Positions 5,595 to 32,312 of a stretch of DNA of 64,000 nt are shown piece by piece. The notes below the pieces were generated by a model. The model made no database searches, was not told the origin of the DNA, and saw only the letters and a list, made by a program, of their open reading frames with translations. This stretch comes from a virus (taxonomy: Duplodnaviria > Caudoviricetes), in the IMG/VR virus record IMGVR_UViG_3300021431_000075, positions 576,001 to 640,000 of that record; one strand, written 5' to 3'. Each line of letters starts with the position of its first letter. The stretch's first letter is position 1. The position numbers and the translations under genes were made by a program.

Positions 5595-5617
5595 AAACTT
5601 ACCTGTTTAGAAACAAT
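5595..5617 (+). repeat. Outer-family putative recombination site R1
   Basis: AAACTTACCTGTTTAGAAACAAT; 67-bp spacer to L1 has no ATAAATA motif. Confidence 0.8.
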
Positions 5618-5679
5618 CGTTAAAAATACTAACACTTTTATTTTAATCATTTTAAAATAACATATGTAGCAAAGTTTTC

Positions 5680-5760
5680 ATGGGAAAGATTGTAATCATA
5701 AAGGATGCAGATTTTGAAGAAAATTCAATTGACATTCATCAAACATCATCAGAACAATAA
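5680..5760 (+). CDS. 26-aa leader micro-ORF MGKIVIIKDADFEENSIDIHQTSSEQ
   Basis: Manual translation; paralogue of 5406, 37375 and 39308 micro-ORFs. Confidence 0.7.
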   Translation: MGKIVIIKDADFEENSIDIHQTSSEQ

Positions 5761-5780
5761 AATAACTTCAACATCAAGAC

Positions 5781-8750
5781 ATGGGCGATCCAATTGTAAC
5801 GAAGATAAGCGTTCAAGACATTCAATATAAGATAAAAGGAACTCTTTATGACGAGCGTGGTTATAATACAGACGGTGGAATGACGCAATCTGCATTAAGC
5901 AGTTTGTTTGACAATATAGATCTTACATTGTCTGACATCAGAACAAAATCTGACGGTTTATCGCTCACATCAGAAGACGGTTTCTATATCATTGATGCAT
6001 CTGGAGACATAGCACTTAAAGTTGATAGCAATGGCGTGTTCGACGTATCTGCTATTGGAACGAATCTTCAAGAAATTATCGGAAACAAAGCGATACAAAC
6101 TGTTGATTCGTCGATTATAGAAATCAATAATACGATTGACAGTCTCGGAACAACTATTGATAATGTTGAAACAACTATTGATGATGTTGAAGGTGAAATA
6201 ACAGAATTGTCTAAAAATGCTCCACGTGTCGTAGATGATTACGGCGTCTATTTTACAGATGCTAACGGAAACATCATGTGGTTCATCAAGACATATAAAT
6301 GTTTAGAAGACGGTCTTTACTTCATAGATGAGCACGGCAATGTTGGTTTGCAATATGTAGATGGTGAATGGTCTTTTAGCAATCTAACAAATGTAGATGG
6401 AAGTGGTGGAGGAAGTTCTATTGATTCATCTACAATGGACCACTCATTGATAATGAGAGCAAATCGAGCAATAAAAGAACTCAATTCTGTCAAAAATCAA
6501 ATAGATCATTCTATACCATCATTATTAACACTTACTAATGGAGAAACACAATCAACATTCTCAACAACAGTTCAGAACACATCTGCTAAGGAAAAGGCAA
6601 TCGTTAGATTGAGATTGCACTATGGAAGTTCAAAGTACACTCCAGACAATAATGATATTTTCTTCAATGGAACTTGCAAAACGGATTTTAGCGACGTTAG
6701 GTTCTTTGACAGCAACGGAAACATGTTGAAAGCCGCATTCGGAGAACCGTTCCATCTTGGTGTGTATAGAGATACGAATCTGCATGGAACTGCACACGGA
6801 AGATACACAAAAATCACATCAAATGGTTATTTAATCAAACTTACCAACCAGGGAATTGTAATAACGAAGGATAATGGACAAACATGGACACCGATTGGTC
6901 CAAATGGTAGTGGTTATAAGAATTATTCCGAGTATCCGTCAGATGTGTATGGTTTTAGAGGTATGATTCCGGTTTTTGTTGATTCTAATAATAATTTATT
7001 TGGTTATTCAGGCGGAAAATTATATAAGATTGAACACGGAGCGAATTATGATTATGCAAATGAAGTAGAGGTCTGTGACTTTTCTTGGGTTTATACAGAT
7101 CCGTCAACAGGAGATACAAATACAGTATATCCGGAAATAACGCCGGCTGGAATGACTGAAGATATAAATGGCAATCTCTATTTCGGAACATATGCGGATA
7201 CAAAGTATTATCATGTAGACATATTTGTATCTACAAATCAAGGAAATTCCGGAACATGGGTTAAGAAATATCATAAAAGTGAAACAGACCTTGATGCTAC
7301 AGGGAATCGTCAAAAAGATTTTCAACATGTTCATCATGTCCATGCAGACAAATACTCTACCAAAGTATATGTCGGTATTGATGGCGGCTTTCCGGCACAA
7401 GGTCCAACACTCATATACACTGATGATGCCGGAGAAACATGGAATGATATCACAACAAGGTTAAAAGAGCATAGAGGTCATGACCAGTATCCTGCATATT
7501 TTGGACAAACATATAAGTTAGGTGGAGGTGAATCATATACTCTTGGTGGAAATTCAATCATCAGAGGAAATGCGGATGATACTGAATTTGAAGATGTTTG
7601 GAAAGGTTGGGGCGGAGTGCGTTTCATAAGCGACTTTGGCGATGATTCTCTGCTAATTGTCGGTATCCAAAGAAATTCTCATTTTGAAGAAAACCAGATA
7701 CTCTTATCATATGACCAGGGCAAGACTTGGAAAAACTTGATGCGCGTTGATACGCCCAAAAAGGTTACAAGTGGAGATGGATTCAGAAAAGCAATATATT
7801 GTGGAACTCTTGCTGGTGATACAGCACCTTGTGTTATTCTGAATCAGGGACATTTCACAGAAGCGTTTAGAGTATACAAAGAGACGAATGATTATTATAG
7901 AGAAGTTGAAGTAGAAGTTGATGACGTTCCATCTTCCGCTTCTGAAATAACAATCACTGCGAAAACAGGTTACGTAATGCCGTATCCATATACTACTGTT
8001 CGTGGTCTTGAAGTTGACGGGCTTGTATACGAGATTCCGTTCAATGAAGGTTGCGGAACAATGGTTCAAGATTCTCTTGGAAATATTGTTTCTATTGACG
8101 GAACAATTTCTTGGGAAACAAAAGAAGAACCAGTCAGATATGGAGAATATTCAAGCGAAGAAGATAAACCATTTGCATTCTCATCCGCAGCAAAAGTCAA
8201 TGGAATTCTTGACTTTGGAAAGATTGACGAATTGAATTTCTCAAATGGATATACGATAACTTTCTGGTGGAACGAGAAGAACCGTTTGTGTCATTATACG
8301 GAAGAAGAAAGATATGACCACGGTTATTTGACGAATCCTGTAATTTTGAGAATCCTGTCAGCCGGTAACTATGACTTGGTTAGAACAAGGGAAGCGATGT
8401 TCAGCATTATTCCAAGAGGCGCGACAACAAGAAACATTACCAATGGTCATTCAGCGGGAATGCAAGCGCTTCCTTGCAGTGATAATTATTGCTTTATCTG
8501 CATTGTTGTTAGCGACACAAGAATTTATCTTTATCTCAATGGCTCGTTATCAGGTGGCAACACTGTTGGTTCTTGGGTTGGTTTTAATGATATGAATCTT
8601 TCAGAGAACAACTTGGTCATAGGTAGTGCAGATACAGAGACGCCGGGTTATATTTCAGATTTCAAAATATACAACAGACAACTTTCAGATACTGAGATTA
8701 GAGACATTTACAAAGGCTTCAATTACGAGCCGCGACCAGAAAATCCTTAA
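5781..8750 (+). CDS. Outer cassette B: fibre/spike-like protein with DUF2341-like, BNR/Asp-box propeller (sialidase-like) and LamG/ConA-like domains
   Basis: Shared MGDPIVTKI N-terminus; CKTDFSDVRFFD; Asp-boxes TKDNGQTW, TDDAGETW, SYDQGKTW; C-terminal GYISDFKIYNRQLSDTEIRDIY. Confidence 0.7.
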   Translation: MGDPIVTKISVQDIQYKIKGTLYDERGYNTDGGMTQSALSSLFDNIDLTLSDIRTKSDGLSLTSEDGFYIIDASGDIALKVDSNGVFDVSAIGTNLQEIIGNKAIQTVDSSIIEINNTIDSLGTTIDNVETTIDDVEGEITELSKNAPRVVDDYGVYFTDANGNIMWFIKTYKCLEDGLYFIDEHGNVGLQYVDGEWSFSNLTNVDGSGGGSSIDSSTMDHSLIMRANRAIKELNSVKNQIDHSIPSLLTLTNGETQSTFSTTVQNTSAKEKAIVRLRLHYGSSKYTPDNNDIFFNGTCKTDFSDVRFFDSNGNMLKAAFGEPFHLGVYRDTNLHGTAHGRYTKITSNGYLIKLTNQGIVITKDNGQTWTPIGPNGSGYKNYSEYPSDVYGFRGMIPVFVDSNNNLFGYSGGKLYKIEHGANYDYANEVEVCDFSWVYTDPSTGDTNTVYPEITPAGMTEDINGNLYFGTYADTKYYHVDIFVSTNQGNSGTWVKKYHKSETDLDATGNRQKDFQHVHHVHADKYSTKVYVGIDGGFPAQGPTLIYTDDAGETWNDITTRLKEHRGHDQYPAYFGQTYKLGGGESYTLGGNSIIRGNADDTEFEDVWKGWGGVRFISDFGDDSLLIVGIQRNSHFEENQILLSYDQGKTWKNLMRVDTPKKVTSGDGFRKAIYCGTLAGDTAPCVILNQGHFTEAFRVYKETNDYYREVEVEVDDVPSSASEITITAKTGYVMPYPYTTVRGLEVDGLVYEIPFNEGCGTMVQDSLGNIVSIDGTISWETKEEPVRYGEYSSEEDKPFAFSSAAKVNGILDFGKIDELNFSNGYTITFWWNEKNRLCHYTEEERYDHGYLTNPVILRILSAGNYDLVRTREAMFSIIPRGATTRNITNGHSAGMQALPCSDNYCFICIVVSDTRIYLYLNGSLSGGNTVGSWVGFNDMNLSENNLVIGSADTETPGYISDFKIYNRQLSDTEIRDIYKGFNYEPRPENP

Positions 8751-8796
8751 TCCGGAATTTTTTAATTCTATTAAAATAATTTGATATAATAATTAT

Positions 8797-9666
8797 ATGA
8801 GCGGAATTGCATTTATAGTTCCAAACGCAGACTTTTCAGGCAGCGTTCTTGGACAAGTAACGATTCAGAAAACTGTTGAAGAAATGGCTTCAACGGTCGT
8901 AAAAGCATACACAGATAAGATTGGAAGCACTCAGTATTCTTCTCAACTGACGAATATGGTAATGTCTCTTATGAGAGAAGGAATATGGAACGGTATTGAC
9001 GTATATCCGATGCTCGGTTCCACTTTAAATCATATGGCTATCAATATAAATCCAAACAACGGATTCCAAGGCCTTGATTTGAAATTTGGCACTAATGCTT
9101 CATATGTTACAAATGGTGTTGAGTTTGCAGAAGGCGATGATTACGGAAGTACTATAACAGATGTGACATATAAGGCATATGACGGTACTGCTGCAGAAGT
9201 TACACAATCTCTAAATGGTTTCTACATATTATCTGATTTGAGAAGATATACTTTGAATGGAAGAATCAGAACTTTTTATACTACAAGAGGTAACCAGAAC
9301 ACTCCGGTCACAATAAAAATAGGTTCAACTGGTAAGGCTATTTGGGAAATTAGCAATACGAGTTTATCATCCACAACGTTAATCGGAACAAGTAGAAATA
9401 ATGTTTCATTTTCAATTAATAACGGAACAATGATAGAATATATTGATGGTGTTCAAGATGTATCGACAGCAGTTGGTTTTGCAAGCGACTCACCAAATGT
9501 CAGGATTGGCAATTTCTTGGGAGCATCGCCAGTTAATGATACTGCAGTAACCACATTTAACGGTTCTTGCTGGTTCTGGGCCATTGGCATAATAGATCCA
9601 TCAAAGCATGCGACAGCAAATACAATATTTAAGACATTCCTTGATGCAGTAAAACCGAACATTTAA
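8797..9666 (+). CDS. Cassette B partner protein (LamG-like beta-rich), paralogue of 41391..42371
   Basis: Shared MSGIAFI..N.DFS, IW.GID.YPM and IFKTFLD..KP motifs. Confidence 0.6.
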   Translation: MSGIAFIVPNADFSGSVLGQVTIQKTVEEMASTVVKAYTDKIGSTQYSSQLTNMVMSLMREGIWNGIDVYPMLGSTLNHMAININPNNGFQGLDLKFGTNASYVTNGVEFAEGDDYGSTITDVTYKAYDGTAAEVTQSLNGFYILSDLRRYTLNGRIRTFYTTRGNQNTPVTIKIGSTGKAIWEISNTSLSSTTLIGTSRNNVSFSINNGTMIEYIDGVQDVSTAVGFASDSPNVRIGNFLGASPVNDTAVTTFNGSCWFWAIGIIDPSKHATANTIFKTFLDAVKPNI

Positions 9667-10705: not shown

Positions 10706-12457
10706 TTAAACTATTAATCTTTTCATTTCAGATAGATAAAACTTAAAAACTTTATCTTCTCCGGCTTGTGATTGGTGTTTGCCGTCATATGTATAAAGTC
10801 CATAACGTTTAGAATATCCATTATTCAACACTCCGTTATTGGTTGCTTCTTCATAAGTGCTTATCTGACCAGTCGAATCTTTAATAAAGTTGTATATCGG
10901 ATTTGTTCTTGACAAGTTAGTTCTGTCATTTGCAACACCCGGATTTCCATCATTGTAATATGGCTGGCATGGTTCAGTGAACGGAGAGAAACCACAATAA
11001 CGCTCTCCATCTATTATCTGAATGCACATGCGTTTGCATACATCTATTATAACATCATTCACTCGTTTAGCACTTTCACCATTCATATTACCCAATCTTT
11101 GAAATACAGTTCCGACAACAATATATGCAGTCGGATATTGTCTCTTGAGATATTCAAGATAGTATCTCATGCAAGCATATGTAGTCGTGGCGCTTTCAAG
11201 TTCTTTATAATTATATGTAGAGAATGCATCAGAAGCGGTTCCAATATCTTCTGTGTTACTAATGTCATTTCCACCAAGTTGAATGATAATTATATCAGGT
11301 TCTATATTTTCTGACTCAAAACTGTTTATCTGAGCGCCTAAACAATTTGTAAGTGTTTGGTCTTGATACTTATTTCTCCATGTAGCACCACCATTCGCAT
11401 AGTTTCTAAAAGTGTCTATTTCCAATTCTTCAGCAAGACGTTGTGCCCATTTGGTATTTCCGGTAGCGGTTGAAGAATCACCAAACACAATCATTGTTTT
11501 CCCTGATGTCGGCAAAGAATGTTTTAACGATTCGATTTTGTCATTCACTTCTGTGATTTTTGAATTAGTATATTCAATCGGATTCGATGTACGTTTCCAT
11601 AACGCTTTTGACAAAGATGTCCAAAGTGAGTTGAATATCAATGTGTCAAAAGAACCATCACATTCTATTGTTTCTGTTACAATTTCGGAACTTGTGCTTG
11701 AACCAATTTCTATAATTATATCATTCTTCACTTTTGCATATAGTTTTCCAGTTGAACCTCCTTGACCTGTTATTATGAACACATCTCCGATTGAAAAATC
11801 AGTTACTATTAAATATCTTCTTGTAGTTTTTGATGTATCAGGTGTAATTTCGGACAAACGATCACCGACATTTGTCTGAATCATTCCTACATTATTTGCA
11901 AAATCATCTTTGAAGTCAATGTCTATGTTTCCAGAAATGCTTGCTTTTATATTTTGCAATTCTTCTGTTATGATGTCTTTATATGGTCTGTAACTTTTAT
12001 GGATGATATTCAAATCTGCAGTTCTGCTGTTGAATATCAAAGTGTCAAATGTGCCATCGCAATAAACTTCAATCGTAGATAAAGAACTATTGCCTTCTGC
12101 ATATATGATAATGTCATCTTTTGCTTTCGCAACTAATTTTCCTGTTACACCTCCAGCACCTGTGATGATAAAAACATCTCCAGAAACAAAATCACTTGTT
12201 ATATAATAAGACCTGTTTGTTGATTCTTGGACAGTCTGCTCAGAAACTTTTCCATCAATTGGCGTTGGAAATATTCCATGTATGAATCTATTTTTAATAT
12301 CTTCATCATTTCTGTTCAGCAATAATGATTGTATAGTATTGGTTATAGTTGCTTGTGTTACGCTGCCGTCCGTGTTATAACCAAGTTCATTATATAAATT
12401 ATCCTTGATGTCATAAACAACACCTTTGACTCTTATTTTAGTTACATTATTACTCAT
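10706..12457 (-). CDS. Inner cassette 1: fibre-like protein with SGNH hydrolase domain
   Basis: Start reassigned to MSNNVTKIRVKG by paralogy; FGDSS, NGGA, QLGGND, DGKH blocks. Confidence 0.75.
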   Translation of the reverse strand: MSNNVTKIRVKGVVYDIKDNLYNELGYNTDGSVTQATITNTIQSLLLNRNDEDIKNRFIHGIFPTPIDGKVSEQTVQESTNRSYYITSDFVSGDVFIITGAGGVTGKLVAKAKDDIIIYAEGNSSLSTIEVYCDGTFDTLIFNSRTADLNIIHKSYRPYKDIITEELQNIKASISGNIDIDFKDDFANNVGMIQTNVGDRLSEITPDTSKTTRRYLIVTDFSIGDVFIITGQGGSTGKLYAKVKNDIIIEIGSSTSSEIVTETIECDGSFDTLIFNSLWTSLSKALWKRTSNPIEYTNSKITEVNDKIESLKHSLPTSGKTMIVFGDSSTATGNTKWAQRLAEELEIDTFRNYANGGATWRNKYQDQTLTNCLGAQINSFESENIEPDIIIIQLGGNDISNTEDIGTASDAFSTYNYKELESATTTYACMRYYLEYLKRQYPTAYIVVGTVFQRLGNMNGESAKRVNDVIIDVCKRMCIQIIDGERYCGFSPFTEPCQPYYNDGNPGVANDRTNLSRTNPIYNFIKDSTGQISTYEEATNNGVLNNGYSKRYGLYTYDGKHQSQAGEDKVFKFYLSEMKRLIV

Positions 12458-12504: not shown

Positions 12505-12518
12505 GTTTCTTATTCAAG
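12505..12518 (-). repeat. Inner-family site S1 (one mismatch: CTTGAATAAGAAAC)
   Basis: 13/14 match to CCTGAATAAGAAAC; variant base at 12517. Confidence 0.7.
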
Positions 12519-12599
12519 CGAGTTTGCTACAGCATAGAACTACTTACAATTCTCTAATGCACAGAAACTTACACCAACTAATTGAAAGAGTAGAACTTA

Positions 12600-12613
12600 C
12601 CTGAATAAGAAAC
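12600..12613 (+). repeat. Inner-family site S2
   Basis: Exact CCTGAATAAGAAAC preceded by GAACTTA. Confidence 0.8.
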
Positions 12614-12660: not shown

Positions 12661-14700
12661 ATGAGTACGAATGTAACCAAGATGAGAGTCAAGGGTGTTG
12701 TGTACAATCTTAATAAATTATATGACACAACTGGTTCTAATACAGACGGAAGTGTAACACAATCATTTTTTACAAGAAAGTTATCAGGAAAGAAAATAAG
12801 CATACCAGATACTGCAGATAATAGGTATTTGGTATCATCGACTGCAAAGTGGACTAATTCAAACTATTCAATTCTAATAGATGTCGTTTCTTTTCGTGGA
12901 AATAAAATAATCATCAATAATGTAATCGTTACAGGAACGAAATATGCATTCTTGATTGATAGTGATGAAACTTCTGTCACTTTGTGTAATGGAACTTCTA
13001 TCTCTGATTATACAAATTTCACTGCATTGACGATTCCAAATGATGCTAACTACTTATATCTTTATCTTGGAAACAATGTTCCGACTTATATGCCTGCTGT
13101 GTTTGTATATGGCACTGAAGAAGGTATTGAATACAGATTGACAAAAATAGAAAATGATGTTTATCAAATATCTGGCGAGACAGCAGAAATCACCAACTAT
13201 ACAAACAAATATATTATGTTATCAAGAGGAAGTTGGTTAGATGCACCGAATGAAAACTCTCATTGTGTCATAGTTGATGTTTCGAAGCAACGTAGCAATA
13301 AGATTAAAACCAACATCGGCGTTCAGTATGCGTTTATATCTGTTGACAATGGACAAAAAGTTATATATTGCAAAGATGTCAACGACACTGACTTACAAGG
13401 TTCTATAACATTAAATTCATTTTATACTATTCCAGATGATGCTATAGAATTTTATGTGTTTTATACAGGAGACACGATTCCAACTTTTGAATTTGAAACG
13501 CCGATAAAAGAAGGCATCAATCAGAAAATTATTGGTATTGAATCTGAATTAACAACCATTCAGCAAAATATAAATTCAGTTAAAGATAAAGTCAACGGTC
13601 GCATTCTTGAAATTCCAAATGCCGCTGACAATATATATTGTGGTTTAACATCGGGCAAATGGATGAGTGGAAATTATTCAATATTGCTTGACGTTTCCAA
13701 GTTCAGAGGCGAACAGATAAAGGCATCACAAGGCAACCAATGGGCATTTATGTTATCAGACGGCGGTCATGCCGTTGGTGGTATATGTGTATTTTGTAAA
13801 AATTCTTCAAACGAAGACATAAAGGGAACATCATTCGATAAGAACACATGGTATGACATTCCGTTGGATGCAAATTACTTTTATTTATATTTAAGCAATA
13901 ATCCATCTACTGTTCCAACTATAGAAATCACAGGAGAAGTTTACGGATTAGACAATATCATAGAAAATATCGACGCGATTTCATCTTCAACTATTATAAC
14001 AAAAGGAAAGAAGATAGCTTGGTTTGGTGATAGCCTAAGTCAACTTATGGAATTGCCTCATCTTGTTGAAAAAAGAATAGGTCAGACTGTGTATGATTGT
14101 AGTTTTGCAGGAGCGCCAATATATGGTTCCGGTTCAAACACAGACAATTATTATGATACCGGTTTCTGTTCTCTTGTATCGCAAATTGTAGCAAATGATT
14201 TCACACCGTTGCAAACTGCTCTTGACAATCAATTAAGCCAGGGACAAATAACACAAGATAGTTATAACAAGAAAATGATAAACTACAACATCTTGTCAAA
14301 TATTGATTTTAGTGAAATAGATAAGATTGTTGTATTTGCAGGAACAAATGATAAAGTTTATTCAACATTAAACATAGAGCCGTTGAAAACAGGTTTGAGA
14401 AATGCATTGCAATCGCTTTTCACAAATAAACGCAACATTATTGTTTATGGAATATTGCCACCATATAGAACAGATTGGGATGAGACATCTAACGGAACAA
14501 AAAGAACATTGTTACAAATCAATAGTGCAATTGCAGAAGTGTATTCTGAATTCGGCATTCCGTATCTTGATTTCTTCCATGCATGCTGCACCAATCAATA
14601 TAACTATTTGCAATGGATGAACAATGACGGTTTGCATCAAAATGCTGCCGGAGACAAGATGTGGGCTGATAAGATAAGCGCGTGGTTGTTGAGTTGTTAA
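12661..14700 (+). CDS. Inner cassette 2: fibre-like protein with repeated beta modules and SGNH hydrolase
   Basis: MSTNVTKMRVKG start; FGDSL, FAGA, AGTND, DGLH blocks. Confidence 0.75.
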   Translation: MSTNVTKMRVKGVVYNLNKLYDTTGSNTDGSVTQSFFTRKLSGKKISIPDTADNRYLVSSTAKWTNSNYSILIDVVSFRGNKIIINNVIVTGTKYAFLIDSDETSVTLCNGTSISDYTNFTALTIPNDANYLYLYLGNNVPTYMPAVFVYGTEEGIEYRLTKIENDVYQISGETAEITNYTNKYIMLSRGSWLDAPNENSHCVIVDVSKQRSNKIKTNIGVQYAFISVDNGQKVIYCKDVNDTDLQGSITLNSFYTIPDDAIEFYVFYTGDTIPTFEFETPIKEGINQKIIGIESELTTIQQNINSVKDKVNGRILEIPNAADNIYCGLTSGKWMSGNYSILLDVSKFRGEQIKASQGNQWAFMLSDGGHAVGGICVFCKNSSNEDIKGTSFDKNTWYDIPLDANYFYLYLSNNPSTVPTIEITGEVYGLDNIIENIDAISSSTIITKGKKIAWFGDSLSQLMELPHLVEKRIGQTVYDCSFAGAPIYGSGSNTDNYYDTGFCSLVSQIVANDFTPLQTALDNQLSQGQITQDSYNKKMINYNILSNIDFSEIDKIVVFAGTNDKVYSTLNIEPLKTGLRNALQSLFTNKRNIIVYGILPPYRTDWDETSNGTKRTLLQINSAIAEVYSEFGIPYLDFFHACCTNQYNYLQWMNNDGLHQNAAGDKMWADKISAWLLSC

Positions 14701-21092: not shown

Positions 21093-24000
21093 CTAACTAC
21101 TTTGTTCAGTTTGCATATAGACTTCTTTATATACACCAACTTGTGTAGAACTTCCAGCACTGATACATCTATAACCAACTTTTAATAAATTTGTCATTAG
21201 TACAGGATTTTCTATTTCTATAGTAATGTTTGTATTAGTTGTTTTTAGTATTTTCCATTCATTACTATTTTCATTCGAAGGATTTGTATCACCTTTTGCA
21301 TCAATGATTAATTTTCCATTTTTTAATTCATAACCATACATTACATTAGATGTAGGAGTAGTACATTTCACTCTTGTTGTTAAACAACTGTTAATGTTAT
21401 CATCAAATAACACAGCCTGTTCAGAATATAGTTCAAATACGCTGTTTATAAATTGGTTTGATTTACTCGCTCCAATAAGTATATCATTTACTGTACCTTT
21501 TATGTGACATTTTATGTAACTATTTATGAAGTTAAATGCACCGGCATATATAAGATGACTATTGTTTGATGAAGAAGTAAATTTACAATCTACTACTTGT
21601 AAATTATTTATGGTTGATTCATTATCATAACAACGGAAGATGTTGTTTACACCTGTAATATTACAATTGATTATCTGAACATCATCTGTTCCAAAACCAA
21701 ATGAGCAAAATGTTGAACTTCCATTATCTAATATATTTCCATTATATAGACGTACAGTATTATTGCTAATAATATTATTATTTCCATTCATATAGTACAA
21801 ACCTCTAAAAAAGTCAATTGAATTATCCGCAACATCAATATTAAATACATTGTTATTGCAAATAATATTATCAACTCGATAAACATCTGTATTTCCACCG
21901 GTTTGTCCGATAATTGTAATGAAATTTGTATATGTGTGTTTTATTGCTATTATATTATCTTCAAATCTTGTACCTGCAGAACGTATCTGAACTTTTCCTT
22001 CAATATAACAATTTTTGATTAAACAGTCTTTAAATGCTGTTTTGTTGTTTCCTTGCATAAAAATAGCATAAAATGTACTACCATTATTATATGTGTTTAT
22101 AAATTTACAATTAATGATATTAAGTTTCTTTACATTTGCCAAACTTACTACTGCAGTAATACAACCATTAGTTGTAGAACTGTTTATCTCACTAAAAGAA
22201 CAATTATTTATGGTAATTGCTTCATAAGAATGACCATATATTGCAAACTGAATAGAATTTGCACTATTTTCAACAGAATTTATATTTTTAAACTCACAAC
22301 TTTCAAAAATAACATTTGCATTGACATCTTGAATTTTTACCAGTGAACGTGCAACCCACTTTGAGTTTGTTTCATCATAATATTCCAATGCTAAACCATT
22401 TGCATCAAAAATAGTATTTTCAACTCTGAATGAACTTTTGAACGTAACTACTGTATTTTTATTCAAAACTTTTATAGTTCCGCCATATATATTAGATTTT
22501 GGTTCTATCTCACCAGATATTCCATAAGTATTTGTAAGATGTATTGTATTACTTATAAAATGAGCTTTGCTTAATGCAATTGTATCATCAGTAATACCAT
22601 CACCGGTAGCACCGAACCATTCAGGGTAAGCTTCTGCAATATTCCATGAACCATCAAAATTGATATTTTCACCAAATATTTGTTCTTTATCAGCAACAAT
22701 AGATGTATTGTTACCTGTTATTGTAATGATATTGTTTGAATCATTTATAAATTTACCACCTATGAAACGTAAAGTGATATTATTTGGTAATACAAGAGAA
22801 TCTGACAATATAACATCTTCTTTTATATCTATGAATTTTTCAACTTCTATGTCAGTCGTTGCTGTATAATCTATCGGATTTATTTCATAACAAGGAACGA
22901 GTGGATTTGAAGAGTTATTTCCATATCTATATTGACTACCAAGAATATCATGATTATAATTATTCTTAACGCAAATATATTTGTAGTTTTCAACTATGAT
23001 TTTGCGTGTATTTCTTGAAACTGACAAATAACTATTTGTAAGATTTAATCCACAATCAAATCCTTGCCATGAACCAATATAACCATAATTGAAATATCTG
23101 CGTTTTATGCAATTAATAGTAGCAGTTTCAATAGCTTCGAAATAACCTTTATCAAAAACAACATTTCCACTGATAGAGCATATTCCATAACCTTCAAGAT
23201 TTGGTGATGCATTTGCTACATAACCAATTCCTTCGATAACAGAATTTGTTAAAGATATTTCACGACTACAATTTATTATACCTTCTTGACATGCCTCAAT
23301 CACTATATTATCAAAAATAGCATTTGTTGTTTGTCTGGAACAAAATAATCCAATATAACAATATCTTATCAAGAAATCTCTTTTGTGAGTACACCATTCA
23401 AAATCATCTATTACTCCGATATTAAATCTTTCAACATATATGTTTTCAATACTTCCTCTAACGAATGTAGTAGTTTGTTCAACGTTATGTACACCAGTAT
23501 TGTCATGATAACGAATATAACTATAAGATTCACCCATTTGTATTCCTATTGTCATATATAAATAAGACCACATATATTGACAATATTCTTCAAGAGAACA
23601 AATCATAGGATATACATCATCATTATCAACATAAGTATGTGATGATAGATAAGGTATTCTATAATCTCCTATTCTTTTTCCAATAGAATAACAAATATAT
23701 CTATATAAAATATTAGTTCGTACATCATCTATTCCGTTTAATTTTCTGGCAACGTAATTTCGTACCCAAGCAAACATATTCTCACGAACTTCATCATCTT
23801 CTTCAGAAGTAAATGTCGGATTTGAATAATTCGTCTCATAATACTTAATAAATGATGTGATTAAATCTTCATTAACTCTTAAGTTTCTCCAATCTGAATA
23901 TAAGATTTTACACAATTGATTAAACGTAAGACTTTTACCAGAATATGTTTTCGGCAATTTTTCATATGAATTATCTCCAATATATCTTAATGTATAACAT

Positions 24001-25742
24001 CCTGTATTGATAAACGAACCTATTATGCTAATTCCGATTTTAGCAGTAGTTAAAATAAAAGTTTTTTCACGCCCACTTCCATTAAAATTTATAACGGTAC
24101 TTGTATTTAAACGTAATCTTTTTATTGTTGTTTGTATAGTTAATGATTCATCAAGATAACCGTTTATTATATTCTCTGTAAAATCAGAATGTAAATTTAT
24201 AGTTTCATTAACATAATAATATCTCGGCAACAGTAAAATATTAAGTCCGATTCTCTTGCTAATACTTATTACTTTATTTAGTATTGATGAACAATATTCA
24301 GGTTCTGAAACAATATTATTATAACTTATTGCTCCCCACCACTCTATAAATAAATTTTCTACATTCCAGTTTCCTTCTAATTCTATATTATCAAATATCT
24401 TTATCATATTTGCATCAATATTAGCATTATTTCCAACTATTATTCCATTAGTAATTGAACCTCCATTAAATTTCAAAACACATCCATAAGGAAGTATAAG
24501 TTTTTTTGAAATATTATATCTTCCTTCATATATAGAAGAATTTATGGCAATGCAAGGAGTATAAAGTAAAGCATGAGATGTATTGTTTGTCAATGTATAT
24601 TCATTTCCATTAACAACATCCGGTTCTTTTTTGGTTGTTCCAAGTTCATTAAGAACTGTACATTCTCCAAGAACTGTTAGAACTAATGATGGTGTTCCAA
24701 TATTACTGCTTTCAACTGGAAATAAAGCAATAATTCTATTAATAAGTGTTTCTAATGGTATAGCTTCACTTCTTTCATATCTATTACCATTTATATTAGA
24801 ATATGTATCTAATGATATATTACTTTCTATACTTCTACTGCACAATATTGATGTATGAATGTCTGTTCCCGGTGTTGAAGTTCCAATGTATATATTATCA
24901 TCCGATTGCATAATATATTCATTGTTAGAAGTAGTTAGTTGTTGTTTATTTTTATCATATAATAATTCACCTTGACCAAGAGTTATTACATCTCCTTTAT
25001 TCAAAGAGAGAACATTAGACAGATAATGCGAAATACCAGTTTCTAATTGACTTGAAGATTTCATCCCAGTTGTATTGCAAGTAGAAATTGCAGTCAATTT
25101 AAAAGGTTTTTGTTGTATTGGTGACTTTTTTGCTAAATAAACAATATTCGTTGAAGGTAGATTGATAATATCTCCAAATTCATTATTATTAGAATCTATA
25201 AAAATACACCCATCAAGTCCCATTATTATATTTCCTTCATCAAATTGACTTAAATCAATTTGTGAATCAGATATATTGTATTTGAACGAACCGGAAATGA
25301 TTTGATTGCTTAAACTTAATACTGGTTCGTCATCTGTAACTTTTAAATTAAAGTTATTTCTGATTTCAAATATCGTATTTGTCTTTCCGGCAATCTGTTC
25401 TTCAATCGGACTATCTGAACGAAGAATACAATATCCTTTTGTATTTTCGACTGGAACATATGCTCTGTCTTTGATTTTCAGAACACCAACACCTGTCTGT
25501 GAGTCTAAAACTGTCGTAATATCGTCTTCATCAGGATTGTTAATTACATTTCCTTCGATATTGAATCTTCCATCTTCTTGCAACTGGCTTATGTCATTGT
25601 AGATTTCATCAATTGCTTCTTGAATGTTTGTTGCTTCAGTATTGCTTACAGTCTTATCAAAAGAAACTTTGGATGCATCTTGGCTGATGTTGTAGTTTAC
25701 TCCTTTGACTCTTATTTTGTTTACAGTACTATTGATAGACAT
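21093..25742 (-). CDS. Inner cassette 5: 1549-aa tailspike-like protein with two beta-helix regions (predicted ON in this orientation)
   Basis: VNKIRVKGVNY N-terminus; IEWWGA and YPEWFGATGDGITDDTIAL pectate-lyase-3-type entry motifs; shares the NNPDE..RAYVPVEN module with 17104. Confidence 0.7.
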   Translation of the reverse strand: MSINSTVNKIRVKGVNYNISQDASKVSFDKTVSNTEATNIQEAIDEIYNDISQLQEDGRFNIEGNVINNPDEDDITTVLDSQTGVGVLKIKDRAYVPVENTKGYCILRSDSPIEEQIAGKTNTIFEIRNNFNLKVTDDEPVLSLSNQIISGSFKYNISDSQIDLSQFDEGNIIMGLDGCIFIDSNNNEFGDIINLPSTNIVYLAKKSPIQQKPFKLTAISTCNTTGMKSSSQLETGISHYLSNVLSLNKGDVITLGQGELLYDKNKQQLTTSNNEYIMQSDDNIYIGTSTPGTDIHTSILCSRSIESNISLDTYSNINGNRYERSEAIPLETLINRIIALFPVESSNIGTPSLVLTVLGECTVLNELGTTKKEPDVVNGNEYTLTNNTSHALLYTPCIAINSSIYEGRYNISKKLILPYGCVLKFNGGSITNGIIVGNNANIDANMIKIFDNIELEGNWNVENLFIEWWGAISYNNIVSEPEYCSSILNKVISISKRIGLNILLLPRYYYVNETINLHSDFTENIINGYLDESLTIQTTIKRLRLNTSTVINFNGSGREKTFILTTAKIGISIIGSFINTGCYTLRYIGDNSYEKLPKTYSGKSLTFNQLCKILYSDWRNLRVNEDLITSFIKYYETNYSNPTFTSEEDDEVRENMFAWVRNYVARKLNGIDDVRTNILYRYICYSIGKRIGDYRIPYLSSHTYVDNDDVYPMICSLEEYCQYMWSYLYMTIGIQMGESYSYIRYHDNTGVHNVEQTTTFVRGSIENIYVERFNIGVIDDFEWCTHKRDFLIRYCYIGLFCSRQTTNAIFDNIVIEACQEGIINCSREISLTNSVIEGIGYVANASPNLEGYGICSISGNVVFDKGYFEAIETATINCIKRRYFNYGYIGSWQGFDCGLNLTNSYLSVSRNTRKIIVENYKYICVKNNYNHDILGSQYRYGNNSSNPLVPCYEINPIDYTATTDIEVEKFIDIKEDVILSDSLVLPNNITLRFIGGKFINDSNNIITITGNNTSIVADKEQIFGENINFDGSWNIAEAYPEWFGATGDGITDDTIALSKAHFISNTIHLTNTYGISGEIEPKSNIYGGTIKVLNKNTVVTFKSSFRVENTIFDANGLALEYYDETNSKWVARSLVKIQDVNANVIFESCEFKNINSVENSANSIQFAIYGHSYEAITINNCSFSEINSSTTNGCITAVVSLANVKKLNIINCKFINTYNNGSTFYAIFMQGNNKTAFKDCLIKNCYIEGKVQIRSAGTRFEDNIIAIKHTYTNFITIIGQTGGNTDVYRVDNIICNNNVFNIDVADNSIDFFRGLYYMNGNNNIISNNTVRLYNGNILDNGSSTFCSFGFGTDDVQIINCNITGVNNIFRCYDNESTINNLQVVDCKFTSSSNNSHLIYAGAFNFINSYIKCHIKGTVNDILIGASKSNQFINSVFELYSEQAVLFDDNINSCLTTRVKCTTPTSNVMYGYELKNGKLIIDAKGDTNPSNENSNEWKILKTTNTNITIEIENPVLMTNLLKVGYRCISAGSSTQVGVYKEVYMQTEQSS

Positions 25743-25772: not shown

Positions 25773-25801
25773 CGTTTCTTATTCAGGTAAGTTTTGTTCT
25801 T
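25773..25801 (-). repeat. Inner-family site S5 (left arm of promoter switch)
   Basis: 29-bp inverted repeat with 26161-26189, 1 mismatch. Confidence 0.85.
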
Positions 25802-26160
25802 TCCTTTCCGTCTTTGAAAACTGCTCGTTCTTTCCTTAAAAATGTTTTTTTATTTTTCAAGTCAAGAACTTCATCGAAAACGATTTTACTATTTATCTTG
25901 ATTTGACGCTTTCTTGTTATTCTGTTTTTGCTAATCAGATAAAAAGAAACATCCATTTCGATTGAGAGTTCTCAAATGCTGACAGTCACTTGTCATGACT
26001 AATCAGCCAAAGAAACACTTTTATTTTCATTATTTATCTTTGCATTTTGCGAGACCATTCAAAACGCTTTTCAGGTTTATTAGCACAGAACAGCTGCTGG
26101 ACTGCGATTTCTTGAAGTTAAGAAATCTTAATAAAAACACGTAACGCATTATTAATATTG
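25802..26160 (-). promoter_or_regulatory. Putative invertible promoter segment of the inner array
   Basis: Non-coding; GATAAATA on minus strand at 25890-25897 and 26031-26038; 26013-26038 matches the protease promoter/leader 50341-50365 except for one inserted base. Confidence 0.7.
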
Positions 26161-26189
26161 AAGAACAAAACGTACCTGAATAAGAAACG
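26161..26189 (+). repeat. Inner-family site S6 (right arm of promoter switch)
   Basis: AAGAACAAAACGTACCTGAATAAGAAACG. Confidence 0.85.
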
Positions 26190-26229: not shown

Positions 26230-27768
26230 ATGAGTATGGATATAGGCAAGATAAGAGTAAAGGGAATTGTTTATAATCTCAAAGATAATCTATATGACAC
26301 GCTTGGAGACCACACTGACGGAAGCATGACTCAGGCAGCAATAACCAGCAATTTTGATGAGATTACTTCTGGCATTGCATCAAAAGCTGATGTTCAGAAC
26401 GACATCAATGCCGATTTTGACATAGCTGATGATAATAACCACTCTATTGTACGTTTCACTGACGGACATATCCAGACGCAGAACTTTGATAGCCATGATG
26501 TAAACAAATTAAAACAGAACGTTGGCTTAACAAAATATCAAGAGTTTTCTGACGAGAGTGATTATTATGTCGGAAACATCGTTCTTCATGACGGCTTGCT
26601 TTATAAGTTCACATCAAACCATACAGCAGGCTCATGGGACTCATCAGAAGTTGAAGAAACTGACATTACTGACAACATAGAAAAATCTACTGATGTTATC
26701 AATTCTTCATATGATTTTGATATTGCTGATGAAAACGGTCTTTCTATTCTAAGAGTATCAAACGGATACTTGAAAACAAAGAATTTTGACAGCGAGAACA
26801 TCGACACAGAAGTATCTCAAAAGACCGATGAGTATCTCCAGTATCTTCGTGGAGGTTCCCCATCTACTATCATAACAGGAATTCCTTCCAATGCAGACAT
26901 AGCAATTAATGACACAATCAAACAAATTCTTGCCACGTGTCCATATGCCGATATCATCCTCATAGCAAATCCTTCAACCAGACGCAACAAACAGCGTTTC
27001 ATAAAGAGGCGTGCATATATCGAAGAACTGAAAGCATTTGCAGATTTCTATTCATTTGGTTTCATCAATTTAAGAGATGCTGGCATATCAAGACCGATGG
27101 TAACGGACACGTCTTATTATACAACTGACGGAACTCACACAAACGATTTGGGAAGCGAGAAACTATTCAATTACATATACGGATTTCTAACACAACGTTA
27201 TAACGGAGAAGAAAATATATCATCAAAGAAAATACTTGTGATGGGAGATTCTTCTTGCGCTCATCAGAATCCAAGTAGCTCCTCGCCGGACGGATTCTTC
27301 TCTTGGAGTACATTGTTGATGAAAAAGTCCAATAGAAGATATGAACTGTTTGATTCTTCAAAATCTTATAATATCGGCGATGTGGTTAGACGTGAAGTGG
27401 AATACACATTATCGAACAACAAAACGGTTTCCATTCCGTATCTATACGAGTTCGTTAACAATCACAGCGGTTCTTGGACTCAAAATGATGTCAAAGTCGT
27501 TAAGAAAGATGTGTATTTGGCAGCAGTCGGCGGTTCTGGATGGAGTGCTGTAGCAGAGACTGGATACACGTCTTCGGACAGAGCAGTTTCTGTCCAGTTC
27601 AATGACTGGAAAGCAACAAAGACATTAGACCCGGTTACGCAGCAAGTGAATCCGGAGGATATAGACATCATTATCATAGGAACTGGCGGAAACGAGTTGA
27701 ACAAATTCAAACTCGATTATTCATCAACAATGAAGTATTTGTGTAATGATGAAACTATTGTTTATTAA
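26230..27768 (+). CDS. Inner cassette 6: fibre-like protein with apparently circularly permuted SGNH domain and two small CBM-like modules
   Basis: IGKIRVKGIVYNL start; DGTH block precedes MGDSS, VGGSG and GTGGNE. Confidence 0.65.
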   Translation: MSMDIGKIRVKGIVYNLKDNLYDTLGDHTDGSMTQAAITSNFDEITSGIASKADVQNDINADFDIADDNNHSIVRFTDGHIQTQNFDSHDVNKLKQNVGLTKYQEFSDESDYYVGNIVLHDGLLYKFTSNHTAGSWDSSEVEETDITDNIEKSTDVINSSYDFDIADENGLSILRVSNGYLKTKNFDSENIDTEVSQKTDEYLQYLRGGSPSTIITGIPSNADIAINDTIKQILATCPYADIILIANPSTRRNKQRFIKRRAYIEELKAFADFYSFGFINLRDAGISRPMVTDTSYYTTDGTHTNDLGSEKLFNYIYGFLTQRYNGEENISSKKILVMGDSSCAHQNPSSSSPDGFFSWSTLLMKKSNRRYELFDSSKSYNIGDVVRREVEYTLSNNKTVSIPYLYEFVNNHSGSWTQNDVKVVKKDVYLAAVGGSGWSAVAETGYTSSDRAVSVQFNDWKATKTLDPVTQQVNPEDIDIIIIGTGGNELNKFKLDYSSTMKYLCNDETIVY

Positions 27769-27790: not shown

Positions 27791-28342
27791 ATGGGAAAAG
27801 CGTTAATTATCAAAGGTGCTGATTTTTCTGCACACTCAATAGGTCCAATTCAAAGAATCGTTCAAATGGAATTTGAGCAGTCAAACATTATGTACAGACA
27901 GAGTGACTGCGGTGTTTATCCAAAACCGTCTGCGCAAGACCAAGTAGTTCTTCCGAAACGATGCAGAACAACAAATGGTACATTGATAGAAGTTGCACCA
28001 AACCAGACCATCACCATCAGCGGTTTGAAAGATCTATTTTATCGAATATTCGAATATCAGGCTTATACAAATGGAGCCGATGAATACAAAACAAATTATG
28101 CATTCACTGGAATAAACTATGGAACTTGGACTGACAATGTTTCAAATTGCTTAACTCCATATGTTTCCAGTTCTACAGATTCGAATATTGCATCAGGCTC
28201 AAGCGTGAACACAATAACTTATACAAATACACATGAAATGACAGTATATATTGGAATGCGTGTTGGCTGGAATGTTGACAGCGGAAAGAACGACACTAAC
28301 ATCTTGCCTGAGGAAATATCAGTGTTCGTTGAATATGATTAA
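27791..28342 (+). CDS. Cassette 6 partner protein
   Basis: N-terminus MGKALIIKGADFSAHSI resembles the micro-ORFs. Confidence 0.6.
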   Translation: MGKALIIKGADFSAHSIGPIQRIVQMEFEQSNIMYRQSDCGVYPKPSAQDQVVLPKRCRTTNGTLIEVAPNQTITISGLKDLFYRIFEYQAYTNGADEYKTNYAFTGINYGTWTDNVSNCLTPYVSSSTDSNIASGSSVNTITYTNTHEMTVYIGMRVGWNVDSGKNDTNILPEEISVFVEYD

Positions 28343-29540: not shown

Positions 29541-32156
29541 TTATGAATTTTTAAGTACATATTCACCGTATCTGTATAACTGTACTCTTAACGTATAATC
29601 ACCAATAGCAAAAACATCATCACCATAGTTTATCCTACTATGGTTTGATGTTATATGAGTGCCCGGTACTGCATTGTCACCTCCAAACATAATGGATGAA
29701 CATATTTCTATTGTGCATGCAAATACAGCACCTTGTTCATTGAAATATTTTGTTGTTGTTCCATTACCTGTTGTTGATGCCACTCTGTTTATAGCACCTT
29801 TATAATACTCGTCTGTTGTATCACCAAAATACTCCTCACCAAGTTCCTTCATAAATGTATATACACAATCACTACAAGCATTTCTTGTAAGAAGTATTTG
29901 ATCTGAATTACCAATATGAGTGTAAAAATGATATACTGTCCATAAATCCCAATCGTAATTATGATGATCTATGACAAAATCAGGATTTATTACTTCTTTC
30001 CATGCCATTATCATTTGTGTCTCTGCTTCACTCCCCGCATAAGGTCCTGTATTGTTACTACCTGCTGTTTCATCAGCTACCCATCCATTAAAAGGGAAAT
30101 TACGATTGATGTTAACACCATTTGCATTAACTCTCTGATTGTGATACTGACCATATCCATTAACACAAGGAATGAAATAAATATCAAACGCATTCAAGAA
30201 TTGTACTAAATTTGGCTCATTTGCATGACAAAGAGAATATGCCAATATGTATGTATTTACTGGACCCGCTTTTTCATTACCATGCAAGGCTGACACAATC
30301 AGCAATTTCTTTTTTGTAGTATCGTTTGGTTTTCTTATAAATTTGTATATATAAGTATTGTATGAAGGAGTTGCCAAATAATCACCTGATGCAACATTAT
30401 TAAGTTCGGCATAGGATGGATTTTGAAGATTGACAGCTGTATATGCGTTCTCTTTTGATACATAATCTGGAAATGCTGCGACTAAAGCATCAAATCCATT
30501 TTGCACCTTATCATGTATTGTATTATCATCGTCCAATCTTCTATTATTTGAGTTTTTCTGCCATATTGTTTCTACAATACTTGAAACATCGCGCAATTTA
30601 TGGTCAATTATAAATGTTGGGTAATCAGCTGATGTTATTTTTATATTTGCAATTCTATTCGATAGTTCTTCTAAAGCCAAGGAATTCTTTATCTCTTTTA
30701 ATTCTGCAACAGTTGCAGGGGTATCTTCTGTACCTTTTTGAACAGTAATCCTTACCGCATATTCACCACTACAAATATAATTTCTTGATTTTACTTGAGA
30801 ATAGTTAACAAAAGCAAGCGTTTCCTTGTTGTATAACAATGCCCATCTCACTCTATATCCAACAGGCATTGTTATTTTCTTTGAACCATAAATGAAATTA
30901 CTTCGCAAAAGATAATTACTATCAACATCTTTTCCTACTACATTAATACCACCTCTTTCAAATAATATCAAATTATTGTCAAATGGGGCATTAGTCACAT
31001 TCTCTGCATAGTCGGCTTCAAGTGAGTCTAATCTATCTGTGAAATCAAGAACACGTCTTTTTATTTCCTCTATCGAGGTTTCTATCTTATATGATTGATT
31101 CCTATATACATTAAAGATGACATAACCATCATCAGGGGCAATCAATTCAAGAAGAACGACTTCGAGATTTGCATTTGCATGGCTTACAATCTCATTATCA
31201 GTATCAACAAAGCACCACAATCTTGCGTTTGCACCTCCCTTTCCTGTTATACGAAATTTATCACCTTCTTTACATTCAAGAACAATATAATTAAGGCTTT
31301 GGCTTGTAGTCGGAGTGATAACTATCTCTGTGCCTATTTCTGATGATGTATTGACTTGCCCTGACTTTGCTTCATCTGATACATCAAAATACAATGAATC
31401 TTGCAAATCCTCCACATCATCATTCACTTTCTCCAATGAAAGATTTTGTTTCAAGTCATAAACTGTAATATCTGTGGCATCGTTGTCATTCTTCTTAATT
31501 ACAATTCTTGCAACCTTACCTGATATTTCAGTAATGATGAATGTATTGGAGTTTGATTTTGAACCATCATAACTTGAAAAAGAAAAATCATCTATATTGT
31601 AATATACAATATATTGACAAACAAACCCCGTAGGAAGTTTCAAGGTATAAGTGCCACTGATATAACTCTTTGATCTCAATCTTTTAGAATTCGTTGTTTC
31701 TTTACCTGAAACATCAATACCACCTTGCTCAAAGAGAATCGACTCACATTTTAATTTTGGAAGTTCATCATCTATATATTTCGTGTATGATATAAAAGAA
31801 TAATTTGTGTCATCATAATAATACTGCTTGTTCTCAAATACATAGTTGGCACCATCCTTGTAAGGCACTTCCATAAATGTGCTTGTACTCAAATCACCCG
31901 TGTAATCTGTGCATTTATATATCTTTCTTTGTGTTGTGTTGTAATAGTATTGCCCTACCGCCGTCACATTACTATAAATCTTACTACTTGCCGAGATAGA
32001 TTGCAATACTATTTGTTTTGAATCTAACTTGAAGATTTCTTCTGATGCTGCTTTCTGAGTTAAGCAGCCGTCTGTATTGTCACCAAGTTCATCATATAAC
32101 TTATTAAGATTGTACACAACACCCTTAACTCTCATCTTGGTTACATTCGTACTCAT
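29541..32156 (-). CDS. Inner cassette 7: fibre-like protein with M14 zinc carboxypeptidase domain
   Basis: Start reassigned to MSTNVTKMRVKG; LHGNE, RVNANGVNINRNF, SEAETQ, IDHH motifs. Confidence 0.75.
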   Translation of the reverse strand: MSTNVTKMRVKGVVYNLNKLYDELGDNTDGCLTQKAASEEIFKLDSKQIVLQSISASSKIYSNVTAVGQYYYNTTQRKIYKCTDYTGDLSTSTFMEVPYKDGANYVFENKQYYYDDTNYSFISYTKYIDDELPKLKCESILFEQGGIDVSGKETTNSKRLRSKSYISGTYTLKLPTGFVCQYIVYYNIDDFSFSSYDGSKSNSNTFIITEISGKVARIVIKKNDNDATDITVYDLKQNLSLEKVNDDVEDLQDSLYFDVSDEAKSGQVNTSSEIGTEIVITPTTSQSLNYIVLECKEGDKFRITGKGGANARLWCFVDTDNEIVSHANANLEVVLLELIAPDDGYVIFNVYRNQSYKIETSIEEIKRRVLDFTDRLDSLEADYAENVTNAPFDNNLILFERGGINVVGKDVDSNYLLRSNFIYGSKKITMPVGYRVRWALLYNKETLAFVNYSQVKSRNYICSGEYAVRITVQKGTEDTPATVAELKEIKNSLALEELSNRIANIKITSADYPTFIIDHKLRDVSSIVETIWQKNSNNRRLDDDNTIHDKVQNGFDALVAAFPDYVSKENAYTAVNLQNPSYAELNNVASGDYLATPSYNTYIYKFIRKPNDTTKKKLLIVSALHGNEKAGPVNTYILAYSLCHANEPNLVQFLNAFDIYFIPCVNGYGQYHNQRVNANGVNINRNFPFNGWVADETAGSNNTGPYAGSEAETQMIMAWKEVINPDFVIDHHNYDWDLWTVYHFYTHIGNSDQILLTRNACSDCVYTFMKELGEEYFGDTTDEYYKGAINRVASTTGNGTTTKYFNEQGAVFACTIEICSSIMFGGDNAVPGTHITSNHSRINYGDDVFAIGDYTLRVQLYRYGEYVLKNS

Positions 32157-32203
32157 CGATTGCAAAATGATTATATTTAGTATTAAAATATCAAAAATCC
32201 AAC

Positions 32204-32217
32204 GTTTCTTATTCAGG
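32204..32217 (-). repeat. Inner-family site S7
   Basis: Exact reverse complement of CCTGAATAAGAAAC. Confidence 0.8.
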
Positions 32218-32298
32218 TAAGTTCTACTCTTTCCCTTAGTTAGTGTAAGTTTCTGTGCATTAGAGAATTGTAAGTAGTTATATGCCGCATCAAACACG

Positions 32299-32312
32299 CC
32301 TGAATAAGAAAC
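32299..32312 (+). repeat. Inner-family site S8
   Basis: Exact CCTGAATAAGAAAC. Confidence 0.8.

Follow-up and report, generated by a model that had tools for sequence, protein, structure and literature searches.

A probable promoter-swap shufflon with two recombination-site families in a very large phage

The virus record IMGVR_UViG_3300021431_000075 (Duplodnaviria; Caudoviricetes) is 673,114 bp long and has direct terminal repeats. The window, which is the whole stretch of 64,000 nucleotides (nt) that was analysed, comprises bases 576001-640000 of this record, has a GC content of 40.6%, and fits the standard genetic code. Its GC content falls to 28-37% between about 2 and 42 kb, and this low-GC block holds the locus considered here, which consists of complete genes in divergent pairs, short recombination sites of two families (A and B), and a gene for a tyrosine recombinase.

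Cassette genes and the two site families

The locus contains 14 complete genes in divergent pairs over about 52 kb. Their proteins are alike only in an N-terminal segment of about 45 amino acids (aa) and are unrelated beyond it. The remaining portions comprise BNR and laminin-G domains, SGNH/GDSL esterases, DUF4886, beta-helix, M14 peptidase, alpha/beta hydrolase, and phage-fibre repeats. Judged from these domains, the proteins are putative tail fibres or spikes with depolymerase heads and a receptor-binding role. A site is present in the 5′ leader of each gene, 31-161 nt upstream of the main start codon, which is that of the full-length open reading frame (ORF). The 14 sites form seven divergent pairs, every site points into a gene, and downstream of its site each cassette starts with an ATG and an N-terminus of its own.

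The A site is AAACTTACCTG-TTT-AGAAAC (20 nt) and the B site is RAACnnnCYTG-AATA-AGAAAC (21 nt). A scan of the whole 673-kb genome finds six A and eight B copies and no others. Within the window, CCTGTTTAGAAAC occurs four times against 0.11 expected by chance, and CCTGAATAAGAAAC, with at most one mismatch, eight times against 0.03. Identity among the A sites extends over 22-24 nt. The left half of the B site is variable (AACTTAC, AACGTAC, AACACGC, and AACTCGC) and B1 has CTTG instead of CCTG; TGAATAAGAAAC is constant in all B sites. Both families have the arms AACTTACCTG and AGAAAC in common, and their centres are TTT in A and AATA in B. An earlier reading, made from the letters alone (the sequence-only reading), had proposed two site families with shared flanks and a different middle that is fixed within each, and the scans, with counts far above chance, bear this out. 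Its description of A as the outer and B as the inner family is valid only within the window, because a third A pair lies 10 kb to its left, at window coordinates -9856 (minus strand) and -9769 (plus strand). The cassettes of the A family outside the window are called A0a and A0b below. The sites and their genes in the window are as follows.

5508-5527, minus strand: A1 site, AAACTTACCTGTTTAGAAAC, pointing into micro-ORF 5480-5406 and gene 2890-5385 (831 aa)
5595-5614, plus strand: A2 site, pointing into micro-ORF 5680-5760 and gene 5781-8750 (989 aa, BNR and Laminin_G_3), with companion gene 8797-9666
12505-12525, minus strand: B1 site, the CTTG variant, pointing into gene 10706-12457 (583 aa, SGNH/GDSL esterase)
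12593-12613, plus strand: B2 site, pointing into gene 12661-14700 (679 aa, GDSL esterase)
16953-16973, minus strand: B3 site, pointing into gene 15565-16905 (446 aa, DUF4886), with companion gene 14769-15545
17041-17061, plus strand: B4 site, pointing into gene 17104-20085 (993 aa, beta-helix)
25774-25794, minus strand: B5 site, pointing into gene 21093-25742 (1549 aa), the B cassette that faces late promoters in this assembly
26168-26188, plus strand: B6 site, pointing into gene 26230-27768 (512 aa, CBM5/12 and GDSL-like), with companion gene 27791-28342
32204-32224, minus strand: B7 site, pointing into gene 29541-32156 (871 aa, M14 peptidase)
32292-32312, plus strand: B8 site, pointing into gene 32356-34836 (826 aa)
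37480-37499, minus strand: A3 site, pointing into micro-ORF 37452-37375 and gene 36029-37354 (441 aa)
39223-39242, plus strand: A4 site, pointing into micro-ORF 39308-39382 and gene 39404-41362 (652 aa, alpha/beta-hydrolase-like), with companion gene 41391-42371; the A cassette that faces late promoters in this assembly

The four A sites listed are exact copies of the 20-nt sequence. The recombinase gene is located between A3 and A4.

The N-terminal segment falls into two sub-families that match the site families. Genes behind A sites start with ..VTKI.V.[DE].. or a close variant and are preceded by a micro-ORF of 24-26 aa, whereas genes behind B sites start with ..K[IMV]RVKG.. directly after the site and have no micro-ORF. 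Among the distinct contexts in all assemblies fetched, 15 are A/A, 22 are B/B, and none is mixed (n = 37), which agrees in every case with the perfect association claimed earlier. The micro-ORF, with the consensus MGK[LI][LV]IIKDADFE[ED]NS.., is found between site and main gene in every A cassette, those at window coordinates -9922 and -9722 included, and its copies differ mostly by synonymous changes. A motif resembling it (G.A.I....DFS..N.G) opens the companion genes at 8797, 14769 (minus strand), 27791, and 41391.

Expression segments and the recombinase

A k-mer survey of the regions upstream of 610 ORFs yields one dominant motif, [AG]ATAAATA (RATAAATA). Of its 192 genomic copies, 87 are located 20-39 nt before a start codon, and those for terminase, prohead protease, and head closure are among the genes that it precedes. 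It resembles the T4 late promoter, TATAAATA. Among the sequences upstream of the sites, this late motif is restricted to two segments, P_A and P_B, with two copies in each; the leaders and the silent modules are without it. The other five site pairs flank modules of about 67 bp that lack the late motif (two A modules and three B modules, in both orientations).

38588-39222, plus strand: P_A, the A-family expression segment, with motifs at 38769-38776 and 39133-39140 (plus strand) pointing through A4
25795-26167, minus strand: P_B, the B-family expression segment, a 373-bp spacer between B5 and B6, with motifs GATAAATA at 26031-26038 and 25890-25897 (minus strand) pointing through B5
37595-38587, minus strand: tyrosine recombinase (330 aa; R187, K210, H290, R293, H316, and Y325)
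37537-37568, minus strand: hairpin resembling an intrinsic terminator, with a 14-bp stem and a T run, between the recombinase stop codon and A3
5528-5594, no strand: silent A module, which separates the back-to-back sites A1 and A2 and lacks a RATAAATA motif
-9836 to -9770, inverted: second copy of the silent A module
12526-12592, 16974-17040, and 32225-32291: silent B modules, the last inverted relative to the other two

The motifs of P_A lie between the recombinase gene and A4, and the site-flanked A segment carries the recombinase gene as well. P_A and P_B have extended boxes in common, GCAAAGATAAATAA in the distal and AAGATAAATAnTAAAAT in the proximal position. Since each family has its own predicted late-promoter segment, the two families can be seen as two channels that would each have a function. 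The terminator-like hairpin would shield the A3 slot from read-through.

Two further promoter-like classes occur in the genome. One is TTAAACTA-N14-TGTATACT, usually about 45-60 nt upstream of the start codon, and the other is the Bacteroidota-type TAnnTTTG. Examples of the three classes are found in the window at 1277 (minus strand), 1312 (plus strand), 10012 (minus strand), and 38628 (minus strand). Scans with the sigma-70 consensus gave only background levels. Taken together, the three classes suggest a temporal programme and a Bacteroidota host, and the host is probably a member of the Bacteroidota because of the host-type TAnnTTTG promoters. The possibility that each leader has its own promoter was rejected, as the leaders hold no exact match to any of the three classes. 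The box TCATTTTG in the B leaders is one mismatch from TAnnTTTG and is a possible promoter only. Cassettes that do not face P_A or P_B are presumably silent.

Two side observations concern the modules. The silent B module contains ACTTAC twice more (CTACTTACAA and AGAAACTTACAC), in the same direction as the left arm of the site and about 25-28 nt apart, and these elements may be accessory binding sites of the recombinase. The reverse complement of the A site, preceded by C, gives TAAGTTTG, which fits the host-type TAnnTTTG box (5521-5528, plus strand, and -9770, minus strand). This box points over the silent A module to the opposite cassette and may be due to chance.

All six catalytic residues of the recombinase are invariant in an alignment with 13 homologues. 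The protein scores 24.6 bits against PF00589 (cut-off 27.1) and 27.7 bits against PF13102, SAM_5 (cut-off 22.3), and it matches the PHROG_1 integrase with E = 5e-15. A TAnnTTTG box is present at 38628-38635, 40 nt upstream of its start. A sequence search of the PDB with the recombinase returned spurious matches only. Scans of IMG/VR for the recombinase, the B-type N-terminus, and paired A or paired B sites found nothing, near relatives possibly being outside that set, and a 15-mer scan of IMG/VR gave chance matches only.

Inverted sites that again have the arms TTACCTG...AGAAACA lie on either side of homologues with 84% and 57% identity. Their sites are CGAAACTTACC[T/C]GTTTAGAAACA and TTACCTG[T/A]TTAGAAACA, respectively. 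As the sites of the homologues keep these arms, the enzyme family goes with them, and because the B sites also carry them, one enzyme for both families is the economical reading. A single phage enzyme would then act on A and B sites alike. In the 84%-identical relative (ENA ERZ28612944 scaffold_256; piece L117, 8693-9946), one A site is separated from the recombinase gene by an inserted TnpB (OrfB_IS605) gene, and the switch is flanked by two cassettes only.

The sequence-only reading had left room for another recombinase elsewhere in the genome, and the full genome holds one tyrosine recombinase and six serine recombinases with the IS607 layout. PF00589, PF13102, and the recombinase protein, used as queries on the 673-kb genome, each find only 37595-38587. 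A second tyrosine recombinase is absent from the 673 kb even at permissive thresholds, and no other recombinase-like protein was found inside the locus. A 314-aa gene inside the locus was considered as a hidden recombinase and rejected, since it has no family match and only a weak phosphoribosyltransferase-like lead. The six serine recombinases, detected with PF00239, are of about 200 aa each and lie elsewhere in the genome (76571-77197, 86025-86630, 119342-119932, 198615-199205, 307983-308579, and 655334-655951). They have an N-terminal helix-turn-helix (HTH) before the catalytic domain, which is the layout of IS607 transposases, and five of the six adjoin a TnpB-like gene of 417-550 aa, one of which is confirmed by Pfam as OrfB_IS605. 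Because of the HTH-first layout and the TnpB-sized neighbour in 5/6, they were rejected as Hin-like invertases for the B sites. The layout of serine invertases, with an N-terminal catalytic domain and a C-terminal HTH, is absent at the locus, where the enzyme is a tyrosine recombinase.

These searches bear on the possibility that two enzymes are at work, with the phage recombinase acting on A sites only and a host-encoded or unrecognised phage enzyme inverting the B sites. The recombinase gene is flanked by A sites only, the 84%-identical relative shows only A-type sites within 10 kb on either side, and the B centres are one base longer, all of which would suit a separate B enzyme. Besides the lack of a second tyrosine recombinase and the IS607 TnpA layout of the serine enzymes, the retention of both A-site arms in the B sites, the copying of the promoter layout of P_A in P_B, and the assemblies in which both families are in a variant state (described below) speak against it. 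A second enzyme is consequently considered unlikely.

Natural rearrangements and the proposed barrier between families

Contigs of other assemblies contain letter-for-letter matches to the recombinase, to several cassette proteins, and to a 57-aa ORF within P_B. To type the junctions, the 70 nt before and the 400 nt after each core were assigned to one of the 14 reference flanks. The arrangement of the window is also present in ERZ28612959 scaffold_1 and in contigs of SRR873597. Seven variant junction types occur at the sites across independent assemblies; reciprocal partners are present, and the joined flanks always belong to one family.

In the B family, (upB5,downB1) and (upB6,downB2) are found together in ERZ12302814 NODE_4039 and in ERZ28612978 scaffold_1616. 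P_B sits between the B1 and B2 genes in both of these assemblies, and its late promoters face the 583-aa esterase, not the 1549-aa protein. In the A family, (upA3,downA0b), which joins the 3′ flank of the recombinase to the A0b gene, occurs in ERZ28612978 scaffold_1616 and in a contig of JGI 3300002641, and the reciprocal (upA0b,downA3) in ERZ12302814 NODE_20832. The junction (upA4,downA0a), in which the A0a gene adjoins the promoter side of the recombinase segment, is present in the same contig of JGI 3300002641, and its reciprocal (upA0a,downA4) in ERZ28612978 scaffold_346. The flanks are 100% identical to the window in all six of these junction types. The seventh, (upA3,downA2), comes from the ERZ920293 strain, whose recombinase is 98% identical, and corresponds to a 32-kb inversion of all that lies between A2 and A3.

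A breadth-first search over signed arrangements places the B variant state three same-family inversions from the reference. The same search counts 18,432 reachable arrangements, and each of the eight B genes can be brought to the promoter end of P_B. The A variant state needs two inversions, as reasoned by hand from the junctions; these involve as much as about 49 kb of DNA, including core genes with promoters of their own. JGI 3300002641 combines a variant A state with the reference B state, so the A and B states switch independently. Both families are in the variant state in ERZ12302814 and ERZ28612978 S006. In the more distant strains ERZ1024294, ERZ27280252, and ERZ28613425, the A and B sites, the two types of module, and P_B with both of its motifs are all retained; these strains have other cassette sets and other pairings of upstream and downstream flanks, and P_B faces an 856-aa B7-like gene. 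In ERZ1024294 scaffold_67 (piece L150, 21930-21975), two A sites directly adjoin each other in a perfect palindrome that lacks the module, and the same place in piece L151 has the normal 82-bp spacing. The palindrome is probably an assembly fold-back and could be a real module deletion.

The B5/B1 recombinant places the crossover. At the site, B5 and B1 have only TGAATAAGAAAC in common, and in the recombinant CCTG derives from B5 and CTCGCAG from B1; the exchange therefore took place within the 12 nt of TGAATAAGAAAC, which include the family-specific AATA. With AACTTAC and GAAAC as arms, we infer centres of CTGTTTA (7 nt) for A and CTGAATAA (8 nt) for B. No junction between an A and a B site and no chimeric core is present in any assembly or relative, just as none of the 37 distinct contexts is mixed. 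About seven inversion events can be deduced from this limited sample, all of them within a family.

The two-channel switch proposed in the sequence-only reading is supported as far as sequence data reach, as both families recombine in nature, A × B junctions are absent, and the two switch independently. The feature is probably a multiple-inversion promoter-swap shufflon with two non-crossing channels, one recombinase, and centre heterology as the barrier. The more specific proposal, that one tyrosine recombinase operates two inversion networks that exclude each other and are nested in a single locus, with the same arms and centres of different length, and that two receptor-binding-protein slots are set independently (6 × 8 = 48 virion types), is on balance favoured. 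The recombinase would be made early from the host-type promoter and would most likely bind the arms common to A and B (AACTTAC.. and ..AGAAAC). Inversion between two oppositely oriented sites of one family would swap the genes downstream of them, so that any of the six A genes could reach P_A and any of the eight B genes P_B. The different centres (TTT versus AATA, one base longer) would block A × B exchange, and the phage would pick one A-type and one B-type protein independently, in 48 combinations. Non-identity of the overlap would thus be the cause of orthogonality. Cre, Flp, lambda Int, and XerCD depend on identical overlaps; IntDOT and Tn916 Int do not strictly do so.

Several points weigh against this proposal. 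Under random pairing of oppositely oriented sites (25/49 pairs are within a family), the chance that about 7/7 events fall within families is about 0.009, which is suggestive, not decisive. Rare A × B products would escape detection, because assemblies show majority arrangements only. Partner sites in relatives differ by one central base (CCTG/CCCG in piece L117 and TTT/ATT in piece L152), so single mismatches may be tolerated. The C/T of CYTG moved with the upstream flank in one event and is linked differently in a relative, and for this reason the overlap is not precisely placed. The action of one enzyme on centres of two lengths is unusual; it has a precedent in XerCD, which works on central regions of 6-8 bp. 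The promoter function of P_A and P_B rests on motif statistics. A metagenome pattern scan for a B core with an A leader gave only chance hits among the matches listed and is uninformative on hybrids.

Some of these points would also fit one enzyme whose site families are not truly orthogonal, with A × B products being rare, unfit, or unsampled and the clean association reflecting selection and a small sample. Only about seven events and 37 contexts were sampled, one central base can differ between partner sites, and some Bacteroidota-type integrases such as IntDOT tolerate overlap heterology. The A and B centres, however, agree at no position and are of unequal length, the differing bases fall within the interval to which the B crossover was mapped, and chimeric cores and mixed contexts are missing from every assembly and relative, which makes non-orthogonality rather improbable. 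Least probable by far is that the junctions are not site-specific and reflect assembly artefacts or homologous recombination between similar leaders: the leaders are 75-92% alike over 150-400 bp within a family, metagenome assemblers can mis-join at repeats, and the palindromic A-A joint without a module in L150 looks like an artefact, but the same variant junctions come from different pipelines and samples with their reciprocal partners, the parental sequences at the B5/B1 junction have only 12 identical bases in common, the breakpoints are always in the core, and an intact recombinase is adjacent.

Among the products of genes that flank the locus are a C5 methylase, a helicase, a prohead protease, and a head-closure-like protein, and a T4-type large terminase is encoded directly left of the window. 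The terminase gene (window -17662 to -14852; 2338-5148, minus strand, of the left-flank piece L124) has a weak match to an intein-splicing domain (E = 0.0024) just before the Terminase_6N domain. Small matches to virion structural proteins are scattered among the cassettes, as is a tail-tube-like gene at 20304-20915 on the plus strand (phrog_45, E = 7e-11; phrog_32623, E = 1e-23). The latter has its own late promoter, lies within an invertible B segment, and flips along with the B4 cassette. A large paralogous family, whose products start with ..LNESLLDEV..DEV.D, has one member at window 1346-2815, and several of the IS607-type serine recombinase genes are inserted among its members. An Rfam search of window positions 1-43000 gave no match.

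Known switching systems and significance

The Vpma system of Mycoplasma agalactiae, Vsp of M. bovis, and Vsa of M. pulmonis use the tyrosine recombinases Xer1, Mbr, and HvsR, and HvsR reportedly recognises two kinds of site, vsa and hsd (PMC2268961). In those systems a gene family has one unique promoter, and inversion places a silent gene behind it. The phage locus is similar in that every complete gene has a site in its 5′ untranslated region (UTR) and a tyrosine recombinase is encoded locally, and its predicted late-promoter segments would play the part of the unique promoter. In contrast to those bacterial surface lipoproteins, its targets are phage virion genes, and the recombinase gene is inside one promoter segment. 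The two site types of HvsR belong to separate loci with unrelated functions, whereas here the two are nested in one locus, share both arms, and serve two sub-families of one protein family.

The Rin shufflon of Bifidobacterium prophages, which uses a tyrosine recombinase (PMC6109161), and the tail-fibre shufflon of a BV01-like Phocaeicola phage (PMC13596623) resemble the present locus in being phage-encoded, in varying a receptor-binding or tail-fibre protein by multiple inversions at short asymmetric sites, and in having alternative arrangements in natural or induced populations. Both swap C-terminal coding cassettes onto one constant N-terminus within a few kb and with one site family. Here, whole genes with their own start codons are swapped at the promoter, and 14 cassettes, about 52 kb, two site families, and two expression sites are involved; the inverted stretches reach about 49 kb and include core genes. 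The C-terminal cassettes fused in frame to a constant 5′ segment that define classical shufflons (R64, Rin, and Min) are absent from this locus.

The R64 shufflon consists of Rci and sfx sites on a plasmid, its target is the C-terminus of pilV, and it has one spacer type. It is comparable in its multiple inversion by one tyrosine recombinase at asymmetric sites, and its spacer and right arm are conserved and its left arm is variable, as in the B sites. It differs in being on a plasmid rather than in a phage and in having one spacer type rather than two site centres. Engineered heterospecific lox and FRT sites (such as lox511 and lox2272) have identical arms, different centres, and the same spacer length, and only like sites recombine. 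The A and B sites likewise share arms and are proposed to be served by one enzyme, but they occur in nature, have lengths that differ by one base, and are known from sequence only.

The recombinase gene of Hin is inside the invertible segment together with an outward promoter, and Gin, Cin, and Min are phage tail-fibre switches. Their enzymes are serine invertases, which act on dyad hix/gix sites with a Fis enhancer (see also PMC6109161), whereas the enzyme here is a tyrosine recombinase. A literature search found no paper describing a promoter-swap shufflon with two site families in a phage.

In known phage fibre shufflons, gene tips are swapped within one gene by means of one site type. In the present phage, the switch probably acts at the promoter and moves complete putative fibre genes with their enzyme domains; inversions take in as much as about 49 kb of the 673-kb genome, core genes included, and the two channels switch independently in public assemblies. 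If one enzyme serves both channels, A and B are a naturally evolved heterospecific site pair, which bears on how tyrosine recombinases read the crossover region. Such a pair would be a natural counterpart of the engineered lox and FRT variants, and would offer an orthogonal site pair for a single enzyme and a two-state recombinase tool without interference. The arrangement also suggests a way in which a very large phage may keep pace with phase-variable host surfaces, namely by combining two exchangeable depolymerase or receptor-binding modules.

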